Positions 4,602 through 44,845 of a DNA stretch of 64,000 nt are shown here, piece by piece. Where the stretch lies: assembly GCF_055900595.2 (NCBI RefSeq), contig NZ_CM148325.1. One strand, written 5' to 3'. A program made the position numbers and the translations under genes. The notes below the pieces were generated by a model. The model saw nothing but the letters and a program-made list of their open reading frames with translations. It was not told the origin of the DNA and did no database searches. Numbering within the stretch: position 1 is the stretch's first letter; every line of letters begins with the position of its first letter.

Positions 4602-5090
<489 letters not shown>

Positions 5091-5102
5091 TTAAAAATAA
5101 GG

Positions 5103-5762
5103 TTACGCTGCGGCCGGCTGGCGTAGCGGTATGGCACAAACGCAAGGATTAGCGGCCAGTGGCACAAACTGGCGGGTTGCGCCGTCAAAGGCTGCGATAC
5201 TTCCGCTTTCAATGTCGTAGACCCAGCCGTGCAGAGCGATCCGCCCCTCTTCGAGCGCCAGGCGCACCGATGGATGAGTTTGCAAATTAGCCAACTGAGC
5301 AATGACGTTTTCACGTACCATCGCCGCAGCTTTTGACGCTAAATCGGAATGCGGGCGCGCCTCATTAACGACGCGAGCTGAATCGGCATAACGCAGCCAG
5401 TGGGAAACAGCTGGCATATGGTCCATGCACTGACAGCTGGCAATGGCAGTCATCGCGCCACAGTTGGAATGACCGCAAATCACAATGTCAGATACCCGAA
5501 GCGCAGCGACGGCATACTCCACCGAAGCAGAAACGCCACCAGGTTCCGGTCCGTAGGAAGGGACGATATTGCCCGCGTTGCGAATCACGAACAGATCGCT
5601 AGGTTCGCGTTGCGTCACCAGCTCAGGGACCAGACGGCTGTCGGAGCAGGAGATAAAAAGTGTGCGCGGGCTTTGCTGTGTCGCCAGCTGTTTAAACAAG
5701 GCTTCCCGCTTCGGAAATGCCTCGCGCTGGAATTTAAGGAATCCATCAATAATCTCTTTCAC
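5103..5762 (-). CDS. cynT: beta-class carbonic anhydrase, 219 aa
   Basis: [16 protein letters not shown]...; CSDSR and HSNCG motifs; GTG start at 5762. Confidence 0.93.
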
Positions 5763-5871
5763 CGTTAACCTCTGTCTGTCTCTGGAATGAGAGGCAGACT
5801 ACTCGCCGATTGCCATAAGGTAAAAGACTCATTTATGATTAGTTCTATTGGATTTACTTATAGGTTGGCGA

Positions 5872-6771
5872 ATGCTCTCTCGACATATCAATTACTTTCT
5901 TGCCGTGGCTGAACATGGCAGCTTCACCCGTGCCGCCAGTGCGTTGCATATCTCCCAGCCTGCGCTTTCCCAGCAGATTCGCCAGTTAGAAGAGAGTTTG
6001 GGCGTACCGCTGTTTGACCGTAGCGGGCGAACGATTCGTCTCACCGATGCGGGAGAAGTCTGGCGACAGTACGCCAGCCGTGCGTTACAGGAACTGGGGG
6101 CGGGTAAACGGGCGATTCATGATGTTGCCGATTTGACGCGAGGATCGCTGCGCATCGCCGTCACCCCCACCTTCACGAGCTACTTTATCGGCCCTTTAAT
6201 GGCGGATTTCTATGCGCGTTATCCCGGCATCACGCTCCAGCTACAGGAAATGTCACAGGAGAAAATCGAAGATCTGCTTTGCCGCGACGAGCTGGATGTT
6301 GGGATTGCCTTCGCGCCGGTGCATTCGCCGGAACTGGAGGCAATACCTTTACTGACAGAAAGTTTAGCGTTAGTCGTGGCGCAACATCATCCACTGGCAG
6401 CCCATGAACAGGTGGCGTTGAGTCGCTTGCATGATGAAAAACTGGTACTGCTCAGCGCGGAATTTGCCACCAGAGAGCAAATTGACCACTACTGCGAGAA
6501 AGCGGGGCTACATCCACAGGTGGTGATAGAGGCGAACTCAATTAGCGCAGTTCTGGCGCTGATTCGCCGCACTTCCCTTTCCACATTGTTGCCAGCAGCG
6601 ATTGCCACACAACATGACGGGCTTAAAGCTATTTCTCTTGCCCCACCGTTACTGGAGAGAACGGCGGTTTTGTTGCGGCGGAAAAATAGCGGGCAGACAG
6701 CCGCCGCAAAGGCATTTTTGCAAATGGCGTTGGATGAATGTGCGGTTGTTGGCGGGAATGAATCACGGTAG
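5872..6771 (+). CDS. cynR: LysR-family activator of the cyn operon, 299 aa
   Basis: Divergent from cynT; LysR HTH N-terminus [43 protein letters not shown] at 5872 inside ORF 5848..6771. Confidence 0.92.
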
Positions 6772-6799
6772 CCGCTGACACAGGTCAGCGGCTGGAATT

Positions 6800-6865
6800 G
6801 CCTGATGCGCGACGCTTATCAGGCCTACGAGTTCAGTGCAAGGCGTTCAAGCCGCATCCGGCATA
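6800..6865. repeat. REP element(s) between cynR and codA
   Basis: gcctgatgcgcgacgcttatcaggcctac and gccgcatccggc motifs. Confidence 0.6.
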
Positions 6866-6891
6866 AACTACGCTCGCTGCAACCCAGCCGA

Positions 6892-8175
6892 TTACCGTTT
6901 GTAATCGATGGCTTCCGGCTGCTCCAGATACACGGTGGTTTGTGCCGGTTGCGTGGTGGCAATCACCTTACCACCACGTACCGAATAGCGTACCGGAACC
7001 TGACGGCGCAGCGCATCAAACCCATTTTCAGCCGGCAGGATAATCAGGTTAGCGCTGTTTCCGGCGACTATGCCGTAATCCTGCAAATTCAACGTCCTGG
7101 CGCTATGGTGGGTGATTAAATTCAGGCCGTCGTTAATCTGCCCGTAGCCCATCAACTGACAAACATGCAGCCCCATATGCAGCACTTGCAGCATATTCGC
7201 CGTTCCCAGTGGATACCACGGATCGAAGACATCATCGTGACCAAAGCAGACGTTAATGCCGGACTCCAGCATCTCTTTAACGCGCGTAATACCGCGACGT
7301 TTTGGATACGTATCGAAACGCCCTTGTAGATGAATATTGACCAGCGGGTTGGCGACAAAGTTAATACCGGACATTTTCAGCAAACGGAACAGGCGCGAGG
7401 TATACGCCCCGTTATAGGAGTGCATTGCCGTGGTGTGGCTGGCGGTGACTCGCGCGCCCATGCCTTCACGGTGAGCCAGGGCGGCAACGGTTTCGACAAA
7501 GCGCGACTGTTCGTCATCGATCTCATCACAGTGAACATCGATGAGACGGTCGTATTTTTGCGCCAGGGCGAAGGTTTTATGCAGCGACTCCACGCCATAT
7601 TCACGGGTAAATTCAAAATGCGGAATCGCCCCCACTACGTCAGCCCCTAAGCGTAACGCCTCTTCCAGCAACGCTTCACCGTTGGGATACGACAAAATCC
7701 CTTCCTGCGGGAAGGCGACGATTTGCAGATCAATCCACGGCGCGACTTCCTGCTTCACTTCCAGCATCGCTTTTAGCGCAGTCAGGGTTGCATCCGAAAC
7801 ATCGACATGGGTACGCACATGCTGAATGCCGTTGGCAATCTGCCATTTCAGCGTTTGCCATGCGCGTTGTTTCACATCGTCATGGGTTAATAACGCTTTG
7901 CGCTCGGCCCAGCGTTCAATGCCTTCAAACAGCGTGCCGGACTGATTCCAGTTCGGTTGCCCGGCGGTTTGCGTGGTATCCAGGTGAATATGCGGCTCCA
8001 CAAACGGCGGTAAAACTAAACCTTGCTCGGCATCCAGGCTGTTTTCTGTTACGGGCATCACGCCGGATTGCGCATCAATGGCGCTGATTTTTCCGTCCTG
8101 CAGATGAATCTGCCACAGCCCCTCTTTGCCAGGTAACCGGGCGTTAATAATTGTTTGTAAAGCGTTATTCGACAC
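6892..8175 (-). CDS. codA: cytosine deaminase, 427 aa
   Basis: [16 protein letters not shown]... amidohydrolase fold; GTG start at 8175 preceded by GGAGG; overlaps the codB 3' end. Confidence 0.93.
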
Positions 8176-9424
8176 TGTTAGCCTCCACATGCGTCATTGC
8201 TGCTGTCGTTTTACGATTCAAAATCGGGTTAAGGATCAGATAGCTCAGCGCACCACCTAATACCGCGTTGACAGGAACAATACCCGGTAACCAGTGGCCT
8301 GCGGCAATCCCCAGCGCGACCGCCAGAATCGCCACCCAATTGACACTCATCATACGCGTGGTCGCAAAGTGCTCATAGCGGCGACGGTTCATCAGATAGT
8401 CGGCGATGATCACGCCACCCACCGGAGGAATAGCAGCCGAAAGGAAGGTTAGCCAGCCGACAAAATTGTTATACAGCCATAGTGCGCAGACCGTGCCGAT
8501 AATACCGTTGATTACTGAAAGAGTTTTGCTCGACATACCGGTAATGTTGGCGAAACCTAAACCCGACGCATAGAGTGCGTTATCGTTGGTGGTCCAGATA
8601 TTCAGCCCCAGCACCACAATCGCAGGCAGCAGCAGGCCCTGAGCAATCATCACATCAGAGATATCCGCCATCCCCAGTGCTGCAGCGCCCGCTGCACCGA
8701 AAATAAACATCAACGAGTTGCCGAGGAAAAAGGCCACCATCGCCACCAGCACCGCCAGTTTGGCATTGCGACCAAAGCGGACAAAGTCAGCGGTGAGCGT
8801 GCCCGCGCTGATAAATGACCCCACAACCAGCGCCAGCGCGACATTGAAATCTAACGGTTGTGCGGGAACGACCGCTTTTAATGCGTCCAGGCCGCCCATG
8901 CCGTTAACGGCCAGCCACACGGAATAACCGCCAAGACAGGCGATAGCCGGAACCGCAATCACCGAAAGAACTGTCAGCGCCGAAATGCCAAAGAAGACGG
9001 TGACGGTCATCAGTAAACCGGAAACGGCAATCAGCAAATTAATATCCAGCCCGGTTGCCTTGCCCACCGGAATAGCAAACATCGCCACGCCAACGCCAAA
9101 CCAGCCAACCTGAGTGCCGCCCAGCAGCAGTGAAGGCAACCATGAGCCTTTAACACCAAACGAGAAGCGAGCAAGAAGATGAGTGGTCAGGCCGGTTTTT
9201 GCGCCAATGTAACCAAGAAATGAAGTGTAAATACCGAGGAGAAGATTACCGATGAGGACTGCGAGGAAGAAATCATGATAGCTAAGACCGGTTCCGAGAG
9301 TGCCGCCGGTCCACATACTGGCGGAAAAGAAGGTTAATCCCAGCATGACGAACGTCAATGCCAATACCCCTTTCCGCGCCGACTGCGGGACTGGCCCCTG
9401 GCTAAAGTTGTTATCTTGCGACAC
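8165..9424 (-). CDS. codB: cytosine permease (NCS1 family), 419 aa
   Basis: 419-aa polytopic membrane [32 protein letters not shown]...; upstream of codA in the same operon. Confidence 0.93.
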
Positions 9425-39465: not shown

Positions 39466-39593
39466 CCAGTATCCCCACTGTTATTGTTACCATTTAAAAT
39501 CAAATTAGTAACAATTAAGACACATTTTATATTGAACGTCCAATCAATAACGGCTTTAATAGATTAACAACGCTGATGAATGGAGTGGCAAAA

Positions 39594-40181
39594 ATGCCCA
39601 AATTGGGGATGCAGTCGATCCGGCGCAGACAACTGATCGACGCCACGCTGGAAGCAATAAATGAAGTAGGTATGCACGATGCGACGATCGCGCAGATCGC
39701 CCGCCGGGCGGGCGTTTCCACCGGGATCATTAGCCACTATTTCAAAGATAAAAATGGTCTGCTGGAAGCAACCATGCGTGATATCACCAGCCAGCTGCGT
39801 GACGCGGTCTTGAACCGCTTACACGCGCTACCGGATGGCAGCCCTGAGCAGCGATTACAGGCGATTGTTGACGGAAATTTCGATGAGACTCAGGTCAGTA
39901 ATGCTGCGATGAAAGCCTGGCTGGCGTTTTGGGCCAGCAGTATGCATCAGCCGATGCTTTACCGTTTGCAGCAGGTGAGCAGCCGCCGCTTGTTGTCGAA
40001 TCTGGTGAGCGAATTTCACCGCGAGTTACCGCGCCAACAGGCGCAGGAAGCGGGCTACGGACTTGCCGCGCTGATTGACGGATTATGGCTGCGCGCGGCA
40101 CTGAGCGGCAAACCGCTGGATAAACCTCTCGCACACTCGCTTACCCGTCACTTTATTACTCAGCATTTACCCACCGATTAA
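39594..40181 (+). CDS. betI: TetR-family repressor of the bet regulon, 195 aa
   Basis: TetR HTH ([21 protein letters not shown]); ATG at 39594 ([14 protein letters not shown]) inside ORF 39576..40181. Confidence 0.92.
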
Positions 40182-40194
40182 CCGAGGAGACGTG

Positions 40195-41667
40195 ATGTCC
40201 CGAATGGCAGAACAGCAGCTTTATATACATGGTGGTTATACCTCCGCCACCAGCGGTCGCACCTTCGAGACCATTAACCCGGCCAACGGTAACGTGCTGG
40301 CGACCGTGCAGGCCGCCGGGCGTGAGGATGTCGATCGCGCCGTGAAGAGTGCCCAACAAGGGCAAAAAATCTGGGCGGCGATGACCGCCATGGAACGCTC
40401 GCGCATTCTGCGTCGAGCCGTTGATATTCTGCGCGAATGCAATGACGAACTCGCTAAACTGGAAACCCTCGACACCGGGAAGGCGTATTCAGAAACCTCA
40501 ACCGTCGATATCGTTACCGGCGCGGACGTACTGGAGTACTACGCCGGGCTGATCCCGGCGCTGGAAGGCAGCCAGATCCCGCTACGCGAAACGTCGTTTG
40601 TTTATACCCGCCGTGAACCGCTGGGCGTGGTCGCAGGAATTGGCGCATGGAACTACCCGATTCAGATTGCTTTGTGGAAATCCGCTCCGGCACTGGCCGC
40701 AGGCAACGCGATGATATTCAAACCGAGCGAAGTTACCCCGCTTACCGCGTTAAAGCTGGCTGAAATCTACAGCGAAGCGGGCCTGCCGGACGGCGTATTT
40801 AACGTGCTGCCGGGCGTAGGTGCGGAAACCGGGCAGTATCTGACCGAGCATCCGGGCATTGCCAAAGTGTCATTTACCGGCGGTGTCGCCAGCGGCAAAA
40901 AAGTGATGGCTAACTCGGCGGCTTCCTCCCTGAAAGAAGCGACCATGGAGCTGGGCGGTAAATCACCGCTGATCGTTTTCGACGATGCGGATCTCGATCT
41001 CGCCGCTGATATCGCCATGATGGCGAACTTCTTCAGCTCCGGCCAAGTGTGTACCAACGGCACCCGCGTCTTCGTTCCGGCGAAATGCAAAGCCGCATTT
41101 GAACAAAAGATTCTGGCGCGCGTTGAACGCATTCGCGCGGGCGACGTTTTCGATCCGCAAACCAACTTTGGCCCGCTGGTCAGCTTCCCGCATCGCGATA
41201 ACGTGCTGCGCTATATCGCCAAAGGTAAAGAGGAAGGTGCACGCGTGCTCTGCGGCGGCGATGTGCTGAAGGGTGATGGCTTCGATAACGGCGCATGGGT
41301 TGCTCCGACCGTATTCACCGATTGCCGCGACGAAATGACTATCGTGCGCGAAGAGATCTTCGGCCCAGTGATGTCGCTCCTCACGTATGAGTCTGAAGAC
41401 GAAGTGATTCGCCGCGCCAATGATACCGACTACGGTCTGGCGGCGGGTATCGTCACGGCGGATCTGAACCGCGCGCATCGCGTCATTCATCAGCTGGAAG
41501 CCGGCATTTGCTGGATCAACACCTGGGGAGAATCCCCGGCGGAGATGCCCGTTGGCGGTTACAAACACTCCGGCATTGGCCGCGAGAACGGCGTGATGAC
41601 GCTCCAGAGTTATACCCAAGTGAAGTCCATCCAGGTTGAGATGGCTAAATTCCAGTCCATATTCTAA
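40195..41667 (+). CDS. betB: betaine aldehyde dehydrogenase, 490 aa
   Basis: Aldehyde dehydrogenase family; ATG at 40195 ([15 protein letters not shown]). Confidence 0.94.
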
Positions 41668-41680
41668 CCAGGAGGTTTAT

Positions 41681-43369
41681 TTGCAATTTGACTACATCAT
41701 TATTGGCGCCGGCTCTGCCGGCAACGTCCTCGCGACACGTCTGACTGAAGATCCGAACACTACCGTGCTGCTGCTTGAAGCGGGCGGCCCGGACTATCGC
41801 TTTGACTTCCGTACCCAAATGCCCGCTGCGCTGGCGTTCCCGCTACAGGGTAAACGCTATAACTGGGCGTATGAGACCGAGCCGGAACCGTTTATGAACC
41901 ACCGCCGCATGGAGTGCGGACGCGGTAAGGGGCTTGGTGGATCATCACTGATCAACGGCATGTGTTACATCCGTGGTAACGCGCTGGATCTCGATAACTG
42001 GGCGAAAGAACCCGGTCTGGAGAACTGGAGCTACCTCGACTGCCTGCCCTACTACCGCAAGGCCGAGACGCGCGATGTGGGCGAGAACGACTACCACGGC
42101 GGTGATGGCCCGGTAAGCGTGACCACCTCAAAACCGGGTGTCAATCCGCTGTTTGAAGCAATGATTGAGGCGGGCGTGCAGGCCGGTTATCCGCGCACGG
42201 ACGACCTTAACGGGTATCAGCAGGAAGGTTTCGGCCCGATGGACCGCACCGTCACGCCACAGGGCCGTCGCGCCAGCACCGCGAGGGGTTATCTCGATCA
42301 GGCCAAATCGCGCCCGAACCTGACGATTCGTACTCACGCTATGACCGATCACATCATTTTTGACGGCAAACGCGCGGTGGGCGTCGAGTGGCTGGAAGGC
42401 GACAGCACCATTCCGACCCGCGCGGCGGCGAATAAAGAAGTGCTGTTATGTGCAGGCGCGATTGCCTCACCACAAATCCTGCAACGCTCCGGCGTCGGCA
42501 ACGCTGAACTGCTGGCGGAGTTTGATATTCCGCTGGTGCATGATTTGCCCGGCGTGGGCGAAAATCTTCAGGATCATCTGGAGATGTACCTGCAATACGA
42601 GTGCAAAGAACCGGTTTCCCTCTACCCTGCCCTGCAGTGGTGGAATCAGCCGAAAATCGGTGCGGAGTGGCTGTTTGGCGGCACCGGCGTGGGTGCCAGC
42701 AACCACTTTGAAGCAGGCGGATTTATTCGCAGCCGTGAGGAATTTGCGTGGCCGAATATTCAGTACCATTTCCTGCCAGTGGCGATTAACTATAACGGCT
42801 CGAACGCAGTGAAAGAGCACGGCTTCCAGTGCCATGTCGGATCGATGCGCTCGCCAAGCCGTGGGCATGTGCGGATTAAATCCCGCGACCCGCACCAGCA
42901 TCCGGCGATTCTGTTTAACTACATGTCGCACGAACAGGACTGGCAGGAGTTCCGCGACGCGATTCGCATCACCCGCGAGATCATGCATCAACCGGCGCTG
43001 GATCAATACCGTGGCCGCGAAATCAGCCCCGGCGCGGAATGCCAGACAGATGAGCAGCTCGATGAGTTCGTGCGTAATCACGCCGAAACCGCCTTCCACC
43101 CATGCGGTACGTGCAAAATGGGGTACGACGAGATGTCCGTTGTGGATGGCGAAGGCCGCGTGCACGGGCTGGAAGGATTACGCGTAGTCGATGCGTCAAT
43201 TATGCCGCAGATTATCACCGGCAATCTGAACGCCACGACCATTATGATTGGTGAGAAAATGGCGGATATGATTCGCGGACGAGAAGCGTTGCCGAAGAGT
43301 CTGGCGGCGTATTTTGTGGCGAATGGGATGCCAGTAAGAGCGAAAAAACTGAATCGCGATTTGAACTAA
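41681..43369 (+). CDS. betA: choline dehydrogenase (GMC oxidoreductase), 562 aa as read here
   Basis: GMC family with GAGSAG Rossmann motif at residues 9-14; only start that keeps it is TTG at 41681, 5 nt after AGGAGG. Confidence 0.88.
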
Positions 43370-43565
43370 CGCAGGAACTTATAAGCTTGAGAGTTACCGT
43401 TCTACGATAAGGACCGAATCCTTATATAAAAAACATAGGTAACACTCATGCTTCATATCCAGTATTCATGATGCTGGTTTTTTGCTGATGTTTTTACCAG
43501 AATATTCCTGATACAGACTATTAATTCAAGCTTATCTGCGACAGATTTCATTTTCTGGATATATT

Positions 43566-44076
43566 ATGAGTGACAAATCAAACAGGATATCGATCTGATT
43601 GAAATTTTATTTTATCTGAAGAAAAAGATTCGTGTTATTCTGTTTATTATAGCTGTTTGTATGACAATGGTGCTATTATTTCTGTACATCAATAAAGACA
43701 ATATAAAGCTGAGTTACAGCCTAAAAATAAACCACACAACATCAGGCATACTTGTAAGCTGTGATAGCAATAATAACTTTGCCTGTCAGACCACAATTAC
43801 TGAAGATGTTATTCAGCGAATTACGAGTTTTTTAGACCAGTACTAATGCTAAAAATTGCCTTGTCAAAAAAATGGTAGATGAATACCAACAAAACTCTGG
43901 GCAGTAATAAACAGCATTCTGATAGAGAGTGCCTGTATAAAGCTGAAGTGACAATGACCGGGAAGGGAGCCCGTCTTCAGGAATGGATTCCTGTCTTTTT
44001 CACTGTAAATATCCTGGCATTATTAATGTCAGGATATTTACAGAAGTGCAGCATAACCATGACGGAACGGGGTTAA
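43566..44076 (+). pseudogene. ykgH: Fragmented ORFs at the position expected for ykgH; probable pseudogene
   Basis: ATG at 43566 reaches a stop after 10 codons; further membrane-protein-like fragments 43661..43846 and 43879..44076 in other frames; AT-rich. Confidence 0.3.
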
Positions 44077-44149
44077 GTCAGGTTGTCCTTAACGCTATTC
44101 ACAACCTCGTATACCGCCTTCAGGTTTATGTCCAGACTTCATATCTCTC

Positions 44150-44845
44150 TCAGCAATCCTCAATAATCAGATACACCGCTTTCACCGGACCATGAACCCC
44201 GACGACTTTGATAAGCTCAATGTCCGCCGTTGAACTAGGACCACTGATGATGTTAATACATGACGGCATTCGTTCACCGGCCTGCGCTTTCTGATGCAAT
44301 TTTTCTGCGAGTTGCGCTACACGCGGCAGGATTGTGCTTTTACGCAGGATAAAAAGAGAAGATTCCGGGAGCAAGCTCAATGAACGCCCGCGCCCGGCGG
44401 CGGAAAAAAGAACCACGCCACCCGATTCGGTTAAACCATATTCAGCATATACGACGCCCACTTTAGCCTGCTCTGCTTGTGATATGTTCTCAATACCTTT
44501 CGCCGGATCCCAAACAACGGCATTGCATTCCTGCTGCAAACGTTCGCTAATCCCCAATTCCTCCAGCCTCGTGTCACCGCTAATCACGACCGACTGCTCT
44601 CCCAGCTCTTTACACAGACATATTGCAGCTTCTGCGGCCTGCGCCTCGCTGGTCAGTTCACAGCGCGTCAACATAACATCGCTGGCAAACTGGATAAACG
44701 CGTCACAGCGCTGCTGTTGGTTAAGTTCGGTAAGCCGCTCGTTAGCATAGTTGTTAAGCGGCGCATCTTCTGCTTGCGGTTCAAGTCGCTGCGGGCGACC
44801 CAGTGCCTGAGCAACGTTATTCAAAAATTCGCTCCGATTATCCAT
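44150..44845 (-). CDS. ykgG: LutC-like lactate-utilisation protein, 231 aa
   Basis: ATG at 44845 (MDNRSEFLNNVAQALG...) 8 nt inside the ykgF 3' end; ORF-track 44150..44998 is an upstream extension. Confidence 0.88.
   Translation of the reverse strand: MDNRSEFLNNVAQALGRPQRLEPQAEDAPLNNYANERLTELNQQQRCDAFIQFASDVMLTRCELTSEAQAAEAAICLCKELGEQSVVISGDTRLEELGISERLQQECNAVVWDPAKGIENISQAEQAKVGVVYAEYGLTESGGVVLFSAAGRGRSLSLLPESSLFILRKSTILPRVAQLAEKLHQKAQAGERMPSCINIISGPSSTADIELIKVVGVHGPVKAVYLIIEDC

Follow-up and report, generated by a model that had tools for sequence, protein, structure and literature searches.

The ykgH gene of Escherichia coli K-12 (b0310) encodes an uncharacterised, predicted inner-membrane protein and features in the literature mostly in metabolic and genome engineering papers, where it serves as a neutral chromosomal integration site. 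The intact protein appears to resemble the polysaccharide co-polymerases (PCPs) Wzz, WzzE, FepE, Wzc and KpsE: an N-terminal 'IDLxEL...K' motif leads into a membrane helix, a second membrane helix lies at the C-terminus, and the periplasmic part between them consists of an α/β base and a long helix. It differs from them in its length (222 residues compared with ~325-730), in a Pfam score that falls below the cut-off, in TM-scores of no more than 0.35-0.50 and in having no partner genes beside it in E. coli, and the copy described here is without most of the domain. The 3′ end of the K-12 gene has a literature of its own. RIL-seq led to the proposal of a 3′-UTR-derived, Hfq-associated small RNA at the 'ykgH 3′ UTR', for which chimeras were found (PMC5145812). 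In a follow-up study, also in K-12, RNA-seq reads were seen to pile up at the ykgH 3′ UTR independently of the gene, and northern blots with two probes did not detect the RNA (PMC8175672).

The window analysed here is the whole of a 64,000-nucleotide stretch of contig NZ_CM148325.1 from RefSeq assembly GCF_055900595.2. Positions 43370-44150 of the window make up the entire spacer from the stop of betA (43369, + strand) to the stop of ykgG (44150, − strand), the two neighbours that had been named in a preliminary description made from the letters alone. Upstream lies betA, encoding choline dehydrogenase, in a 562-codon form (41681-43369, +) that was taken from the open reading frame listing and has its counterpart in the PGAP betA (1689 nt, same stop) of a 99.8%-identical genome. 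The convergent downstream neighbour, ykgG of the LutC family, is intact (44150-44845, −; open reading frame listing, with PGAP coordinates transferred). By position, the start of betA in the window is a TTG codon at 41681, with an AGGAGG site ahead of it. The C-terminus of betA is six codons longer than in K-12, where the protein ends RAKK*; the K-12 stop comes earlier because K-12 is without one base after an A-run. A terminator-like hairpin and T-run lie 3′ of betA at 43459-43485 (+; CCAGTATTCATGATGCTGG then TTTTTTGCTG in the consensus scan). The hairpin sequence shows no variation among the aligned alleles, and a terminator role is suggested by its form. The region is AT-rich, as had been remarked, the GC content across 43400-43900 being 29-34% compared with 50-63% in the flanking genes. 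In B2, in O157:H7 and in one clade I strain, the spacer between betA and ykgH holds a fimX-hyxR-hyxA-hyxB island, and ykgH there lies directly 3′ of the hyxB autotransporter gene.

At the syntenic position, K-12 (BW25113) carries an intact ykgH of 669 nt, or 222 codons, on the betA strand; the thought that the K-12 gene might itself be as short as the fragments in the window can thus be set aside. We carried out the alignment to K-12 ykgH that the preliminary description had proposed, adding 042, ST2747, RMDEC465 and other alleles; the lesions were judged by comparison with six intact alleles, that of K-12 among them. The sequence in the window is the ykgH orthologue by position, lying between betA and ykgG and oriented as betA, and it is homologous to the K-12 gene along the retained parts, with nucleotide identities of 91% in the first 250 nt and 98% in the final 56 nt. 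It shares with K-12 ykgH its position, orientation and AT-richness; it differs in being 327 nt shorter, in having a stop at codon 11 and in lacking residues ~93-205. What is left of the gene, 342 of 669 nt, spans 43566-43907 (+). The missing bases are distributed over three gaps (1 + 2 + 324 nt). One base is gone from codon 3 (GAA to GA) at 43572/73, shifting the frame; two are gone at 43824/25, a gap that belongs to the internal deletion; and 324 are gone at 43855/56, where the middle of the gene has been lost.

The original start codon survives at the head of a frameshifted 10-codon reading frame, MSDKSNRISI (43566-43598, +), recognised both in the sequence and in the alignment. It ends at TGA 43596-98, in agreement with the earlier remark that the ATG at 43566 leads to a stop after 10 codons. 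The information for residues ~4-92 follows in the shifted frame at 43574-43846 (+), ending in TAA at 43844-46, and the first canonical start that this frame offers, the ATG at 43661, falls within the first membrane helix. Between the 2-nt and 324-nt gaps lies the deletion junction segment of 31 nt (43825-43855), which is ~73% identical to the intact alleles. Because this identity is so low, the break points are uncertain by ~30 nt, as are the number and order of the events; the junction segment is likewise too diverged for the break points to be defined in a search for repeats or microhomology at the deletion ends. Beyond it, alignment identifies the last 16 codons of the gene, CLVKKMVDEYQQNSGQ, and their stop, TAA at 43905-07, as a retained tail (43856-43907, +). 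This tail shares a frame with the ATG at 43566, from which stop codons divide it.

No reading frame connects these pieces, and a functional ykgH open reading frame, of ~222 codons and with both membrane helices, is absent from the window. Projected onto the protein, the deletion costs it its long periplasmic helix, the greater part of its second membrane helix and a portion of the α/β base. To judge from its sequence, the locus would not give rise to a YkgH protein. The preliminary description had left a choice between a pseudogenised and a highly divergent ykgH. The first of these is upheld by the frameshift, the ~326-nt deletion, the identities of the retained parts and the synteny; the second is wrong, because no frame is continuous.

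The deletion junction proved to be shared. Of 5,426 complete E. coli genomes, exactly 15 match a 101-nt probe spanning it, the junction being identical in all, and it is these 15 to which the whole region also aligns without a break. Their hosts are dogs, humans, cattle, a goat and a pig, and they originate from Korea, Mali, the USA and elsewhere, covering several continents; around the lesion they diverge from one another by up to ~3%. The 1-nt deletion in codon 3 is also present in the carriers that were aligned. The junction site is labelled 'hypothetical protein' in all 15 carriers, and in the five inspected PGAP flags an incomplete or frameshifted pseudogene on part of the remnant. In one carrier, 2020CK-00188, the start codon has in addition been changed from ATG to ATA and a further 1-nt deletion has occurred; these changes, as read from the alignment, are continued decay of the kind expected of a dead gene.

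We compared the codBA-cyn and bet regions (window positions 5000-9000 and 39500-43369), which lie 35 kb apart, with the complete genomes, ~5,200 of which, outside the nearest group, contain these regions. The nearest relatives at both are the same ~18 complete genomes. Identity to this group is 96-100% in the bet operon and 98-100% at codBA-cyn, compared with ~94% and ~96%, respectively, to all other E. coli. A published list of complete genomes from Escherichia cryptic clade I includes two junction carriers, 2013C-4282 and EC42405; of this lineage 465 strains have been described, and its average nucleotide identity is at least 98.3% within the clade and at least 95.9% to E. coli sensu stricto (PMC10100065). 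Since the nearest group at two loci contains two published clade I strains, these identities place the window in Escherichia cryptic clade I and not in E. coli sensu stricto.

Three members of the group are without the junction. In clade I strains 100117 (L022) and 100248, a larger deletion joins the 3′ end of betA to paoC, and ykgH has gone together with everything between. The third, RMDEC465, has the fimX-hyx island and an intact ykgH of the mainstream type, which was evidently imported along with the island, to judge from the company it keeps. The YkgH of RMDEC465 (L024:2794-3462), otherwise intact, has Cys in place of Trp129, the sole invariant column in the family alignment described below. 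An intact ykgH of clade I type was found in none of the ~18 complete genomes of the group. The lesion is probably ancestral to the sampled clade, the sample being a small one of 18 complete genomes.

Among the 5,426 complete genomes as a whole, ykgH is present at full length in 4,892. Among six intact alleles, dN/dS lies between 0.11 and 0.34 in 12 of the 14 informative pairs, the other two giving 0.51 and 0.62; these ratios indicate that intact ykgH is a real gene under purifying selection. For the remnant in the window (codons 5-90), dN/dS against intact alleles is 0.13-0.23, and dN is 2-4 times that among the intact alleles. Since the ratio is still low, most of the divergence of the remnant would have preceded inactivation, and only loose bounds can be put on the age of the lesion.

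The gene has nevertheless been lost repeatedly. Among the alleles inspected, a single nonsense codon interrupts an otherwise full-length ykgH in B7A, 22AR0322 and 2015C-3163, which have G107* in common, and in O157:H7 strain 493/89, which has Q139*. ApSLC23 carries a 168-nt in-frame deletion, and IS1 insertions are found in two strains. These alleles resemble that of the window in being loss-of-function or truncating and in bearing either a RefSeq pseudogene flag or the name 'hypothetical protein'. They differ in having arisen independently, at other positions, in genes that are full length or nearly so. The clade I allele has both a frameshift and a large deletion, and a deep-branching lineage is fixed for it. 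The true frequency of ykgH pseudogenes is higher than the match tables imply, because the tables label nonsense alleles 'ykgH: protein YkgH'.

The broken frames might be laid to sequencing or assembly error in a strain whose ykgH is intact. The 1-nt deletion, taken alone, does resemble a common type of sequencing error, and the preliminary description had envisaged an intact frame returning once a homopolymer was corrected. However, the base is missing from an AA dinucleotide and not from a homopolymer run, its restoration would leave the ~326-nt deletion in place, and a 326-nt deletion is impossible as a base-calling error. Because the same junction recurs in 15 independent complete assemblies, from varied hosts and mutually diverged, sequencing error is excluded, and we give an artefactual origin practically no credence. 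Remodelling of the locus, with one or both of the short reading frames previously noted there expressed as new small membrane proteins, is also very improbable, if less so. Both frames exist, of 61 and 65 codons, and both contain hydrophobic stretches. The former (43661-43846, +) is a genuine fragment of ykgH, as had been supposed, its translation matching YkgH residues 33-92, and translation starting at the internal ATG at 43661 might in principle yield a truncated product; it would, however, begin in the middle of the first YkgH membrane helix, and no Shine-Dalgarno-like sequence is seen upstream by eye. The latter (43879-44076, +), which has a hydrophobic core, is not the ykgH fragment it was taken for: it runs over the ykgH tail and the 3′ UTR, mainly the latter, out of frame with the tail, and is open in all 11 alleles checked, including that of K-12. 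One RefSeq genome lists it as hypothetical protein WP_064735138.1, the only such PGAP call among the five carriers that were inspected. We rejected it as a real gene since, though open in every allele, its substitution pattern is not coding-like: its variable sites are distributed 11/3/9 over the codon positions, the majority of changes are non-synonymous, and a terminator-like hairpin at 43978-43993 lies within it.

A third account concerns the 3′ end, where the remnant might have been kept because the tail and 3′ UTR encode an Hfq-binding small RNA with its own promoter, deletions that removed this RNA being counter-selected; the coding part could still be a pseudogene. The 3′ UTR is intact (43908-44001, +) and corresponds to the K-12 'ykgH 3′ UTR' at which the putative Hfq-associated RNA was proposed, a correspondence drawn from the probe sequences and a sequence match by eye. 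The published northern probes (PMC8175672, supplement) map to 43951-43989, just upstream of and overlapping the hairpin at 43978-43993 (+), which the consensus scan shows to be followed by a T-run, TCTTTTTC. The intact probe-matching region and the hairpin speak in favour of this account, as do the gene-independent reads in K-12 and the final 57 nt of ykgH, which vary less than any other part of the locus (π 0.012, 14 alleles). The window thus shares with 3′-UTR-derived, Hfq-dependent small RNAs the candidate site and a terminator-like hairpin with T-run. Unlike the established members of that class, the candidate is without northern confirmation, both probes having been negative, and shows no excess conservation, the nucleotide diversity of the 3′ UTR in the 14 alleles being 0.047, compared with 0.027-0.032 in the coding sequence and 0.050 in the rest of the intergenic region. 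No σ70-like promoter was found in the retained tail, the promoter scan as a whole yielded no more sites than expected from shuffled sequence (4 as against 3.6), and other lineages lose the ykgH 3′ UTR region altogether. An exact 18-mer from the core of the 3′ UTR, searched against 100,044 species representatives, returned nine unrelated chance matches and no Escherichia; evidently the representative E. coli genome differs in these 18 nt or is without the region. We regard retention for the sake of a small RNA as unlikely. The sharper proposal, that the deletion halted 52 nt short of the ykgH stop because 43856-44001 specifies a regulatory RNA, bound by Hfq and transcribed on its own, which clade I continues to require, is a long shot and slightly less probable again; were it true, the gene would be dead and the small RNA embedded in its 3′ UTR would have outlived it.

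Other examinations of the 3′ end gave little. A comparison of the window with K-12 hinted at an unusually conserved 3′ UTR (96-98% as against 87-91% identity), and this was not upheld in the 14-allele sample. An Rfam scan of 43200-44400 produced matches at chance level only (E ≥ 0.18), far below the gathering scores, and the minimum-free-energy RNA fold of the 3′ UTR varies between alleles.

To consider what the clade has lost, we turn to the intact protein. No Pfam or NCBIfam family matches YkgH above threshold, and a word-indexed protein search with YkgH returned E. coli sequences only. An exhaustive HMMER search revealed a small family of full-length homologues with identities of 21-31%, whose alignment shows an N-terminal IDLxEL motif, two cysteines, an invariant Trp129 and a nearly invariant Tyr186 as shared features. 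K-12 YkgH scores 18.5 bits (E = 0.0025) against Pfam Wzz (PF02706), for which the curated cut-off is 25.5 bits, and sub-threshold matches to this family are given by 8 of 13 YkgH family members, the best with E = 4.6e-4. Pfam GNVR (PF13807) is matched by six of the 13 (best E = 5.1e-8; K-12 YkgH, E = 0.56), and is listed in the precomputed annotation of one homologue (P0060). When the family profile was run against PDB sequences, Wzz, FepE and Wzc came first, weakly (E = 0.003 to 7; Wzz 6rbg, E = 0.0031).

The predicted structure leads in the same direction. The AlphaFold2 model of YkgH has a mean pLDDT of 85, and in a Foldseek search of the PDB the first 33 matches were without exception Wzc, WzzE, KpsE or WzzB (E = 2e-4 to 2e-2, TM 0.29-0.50). 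The elements of the PCP fold, an α/β base, a long periplasmic helix and two membrane helices, are all present in the model; the resemblance is moderate, with a truncated periplasmic domain. From the model and the profile matches, intact YkgH looks like a miniature polysaccharide co-polymerase-like (Wzz/Wzc-like) inner-membrane scaffold. Because the scores do not reach the curated cut-offs and E. coli ykgH has no gene for a polymerase or exporter as its neighbour, formal membership of the PCP family is not established. Beside E. coli ykgH, whose neighbours are betA, hyxB and ykgG, we found no wzx/wzy, KpsMT, Wza or ABC-transporter partner. Distant homologues are encoded beside an autotransporter (L021) or beside a fimbrial operon that is accompanied by a PglL/Wzy_C-like gene and ScsC (L032), and only one of them adjoins a Wzy_C/PglL-like gene. 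Functionally, ykgH may belong to adhesin loci of the autotransporter or fimbrial kind.

Overall, we conclude that the locus is very probably a unitary ykgH pseudogene, disabled by a frameshift and a deletion and inherited within Escherichia cryptic clade I. An intact, constrained homologue occupies the same locus in relatives, and the lesions are reproducible. On this reading, ykgH would have lost one base of codon 3 and ~326 bases from its middle in an ancestor of the sampled clade I genomes, and with the deleted part would have gone the bulk of both the periplasmic domain and the second membrane helix. A ribosome starting at the original ATG would then halt after 10 codons, and the rest of the gene would be left with neither a usable start nor the C-terminal half. 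We infer that the loss was tolerated since ykgH is dispensable, which fits both the independent inactivations and the use of the gene as an integration site. The function given up would belong to a small inner-membrane protein that has two helices and folds like a polysaccharide co-polymerase.

The case is one of ordinary gene decay, and the pseudogene is already annotated in RefSeq. Its uses are modest and three in number. The 31-nt junction at 43825-43855 provides a simple marker, found among the 5,426 complete genomes in the clade I group only. The repeated and independent loss of ykgH, in clade I, in O157:H7, in strains of the B7A type and through IS1, suggests that the gene is dispensable in many settings and supports its use as a neutral integration site. 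Finally, a miniature PCP-like YkgH, often encoded beside autotransporter or fimbrial loci, would give this orphan K-12 gene its first testable idea of function.
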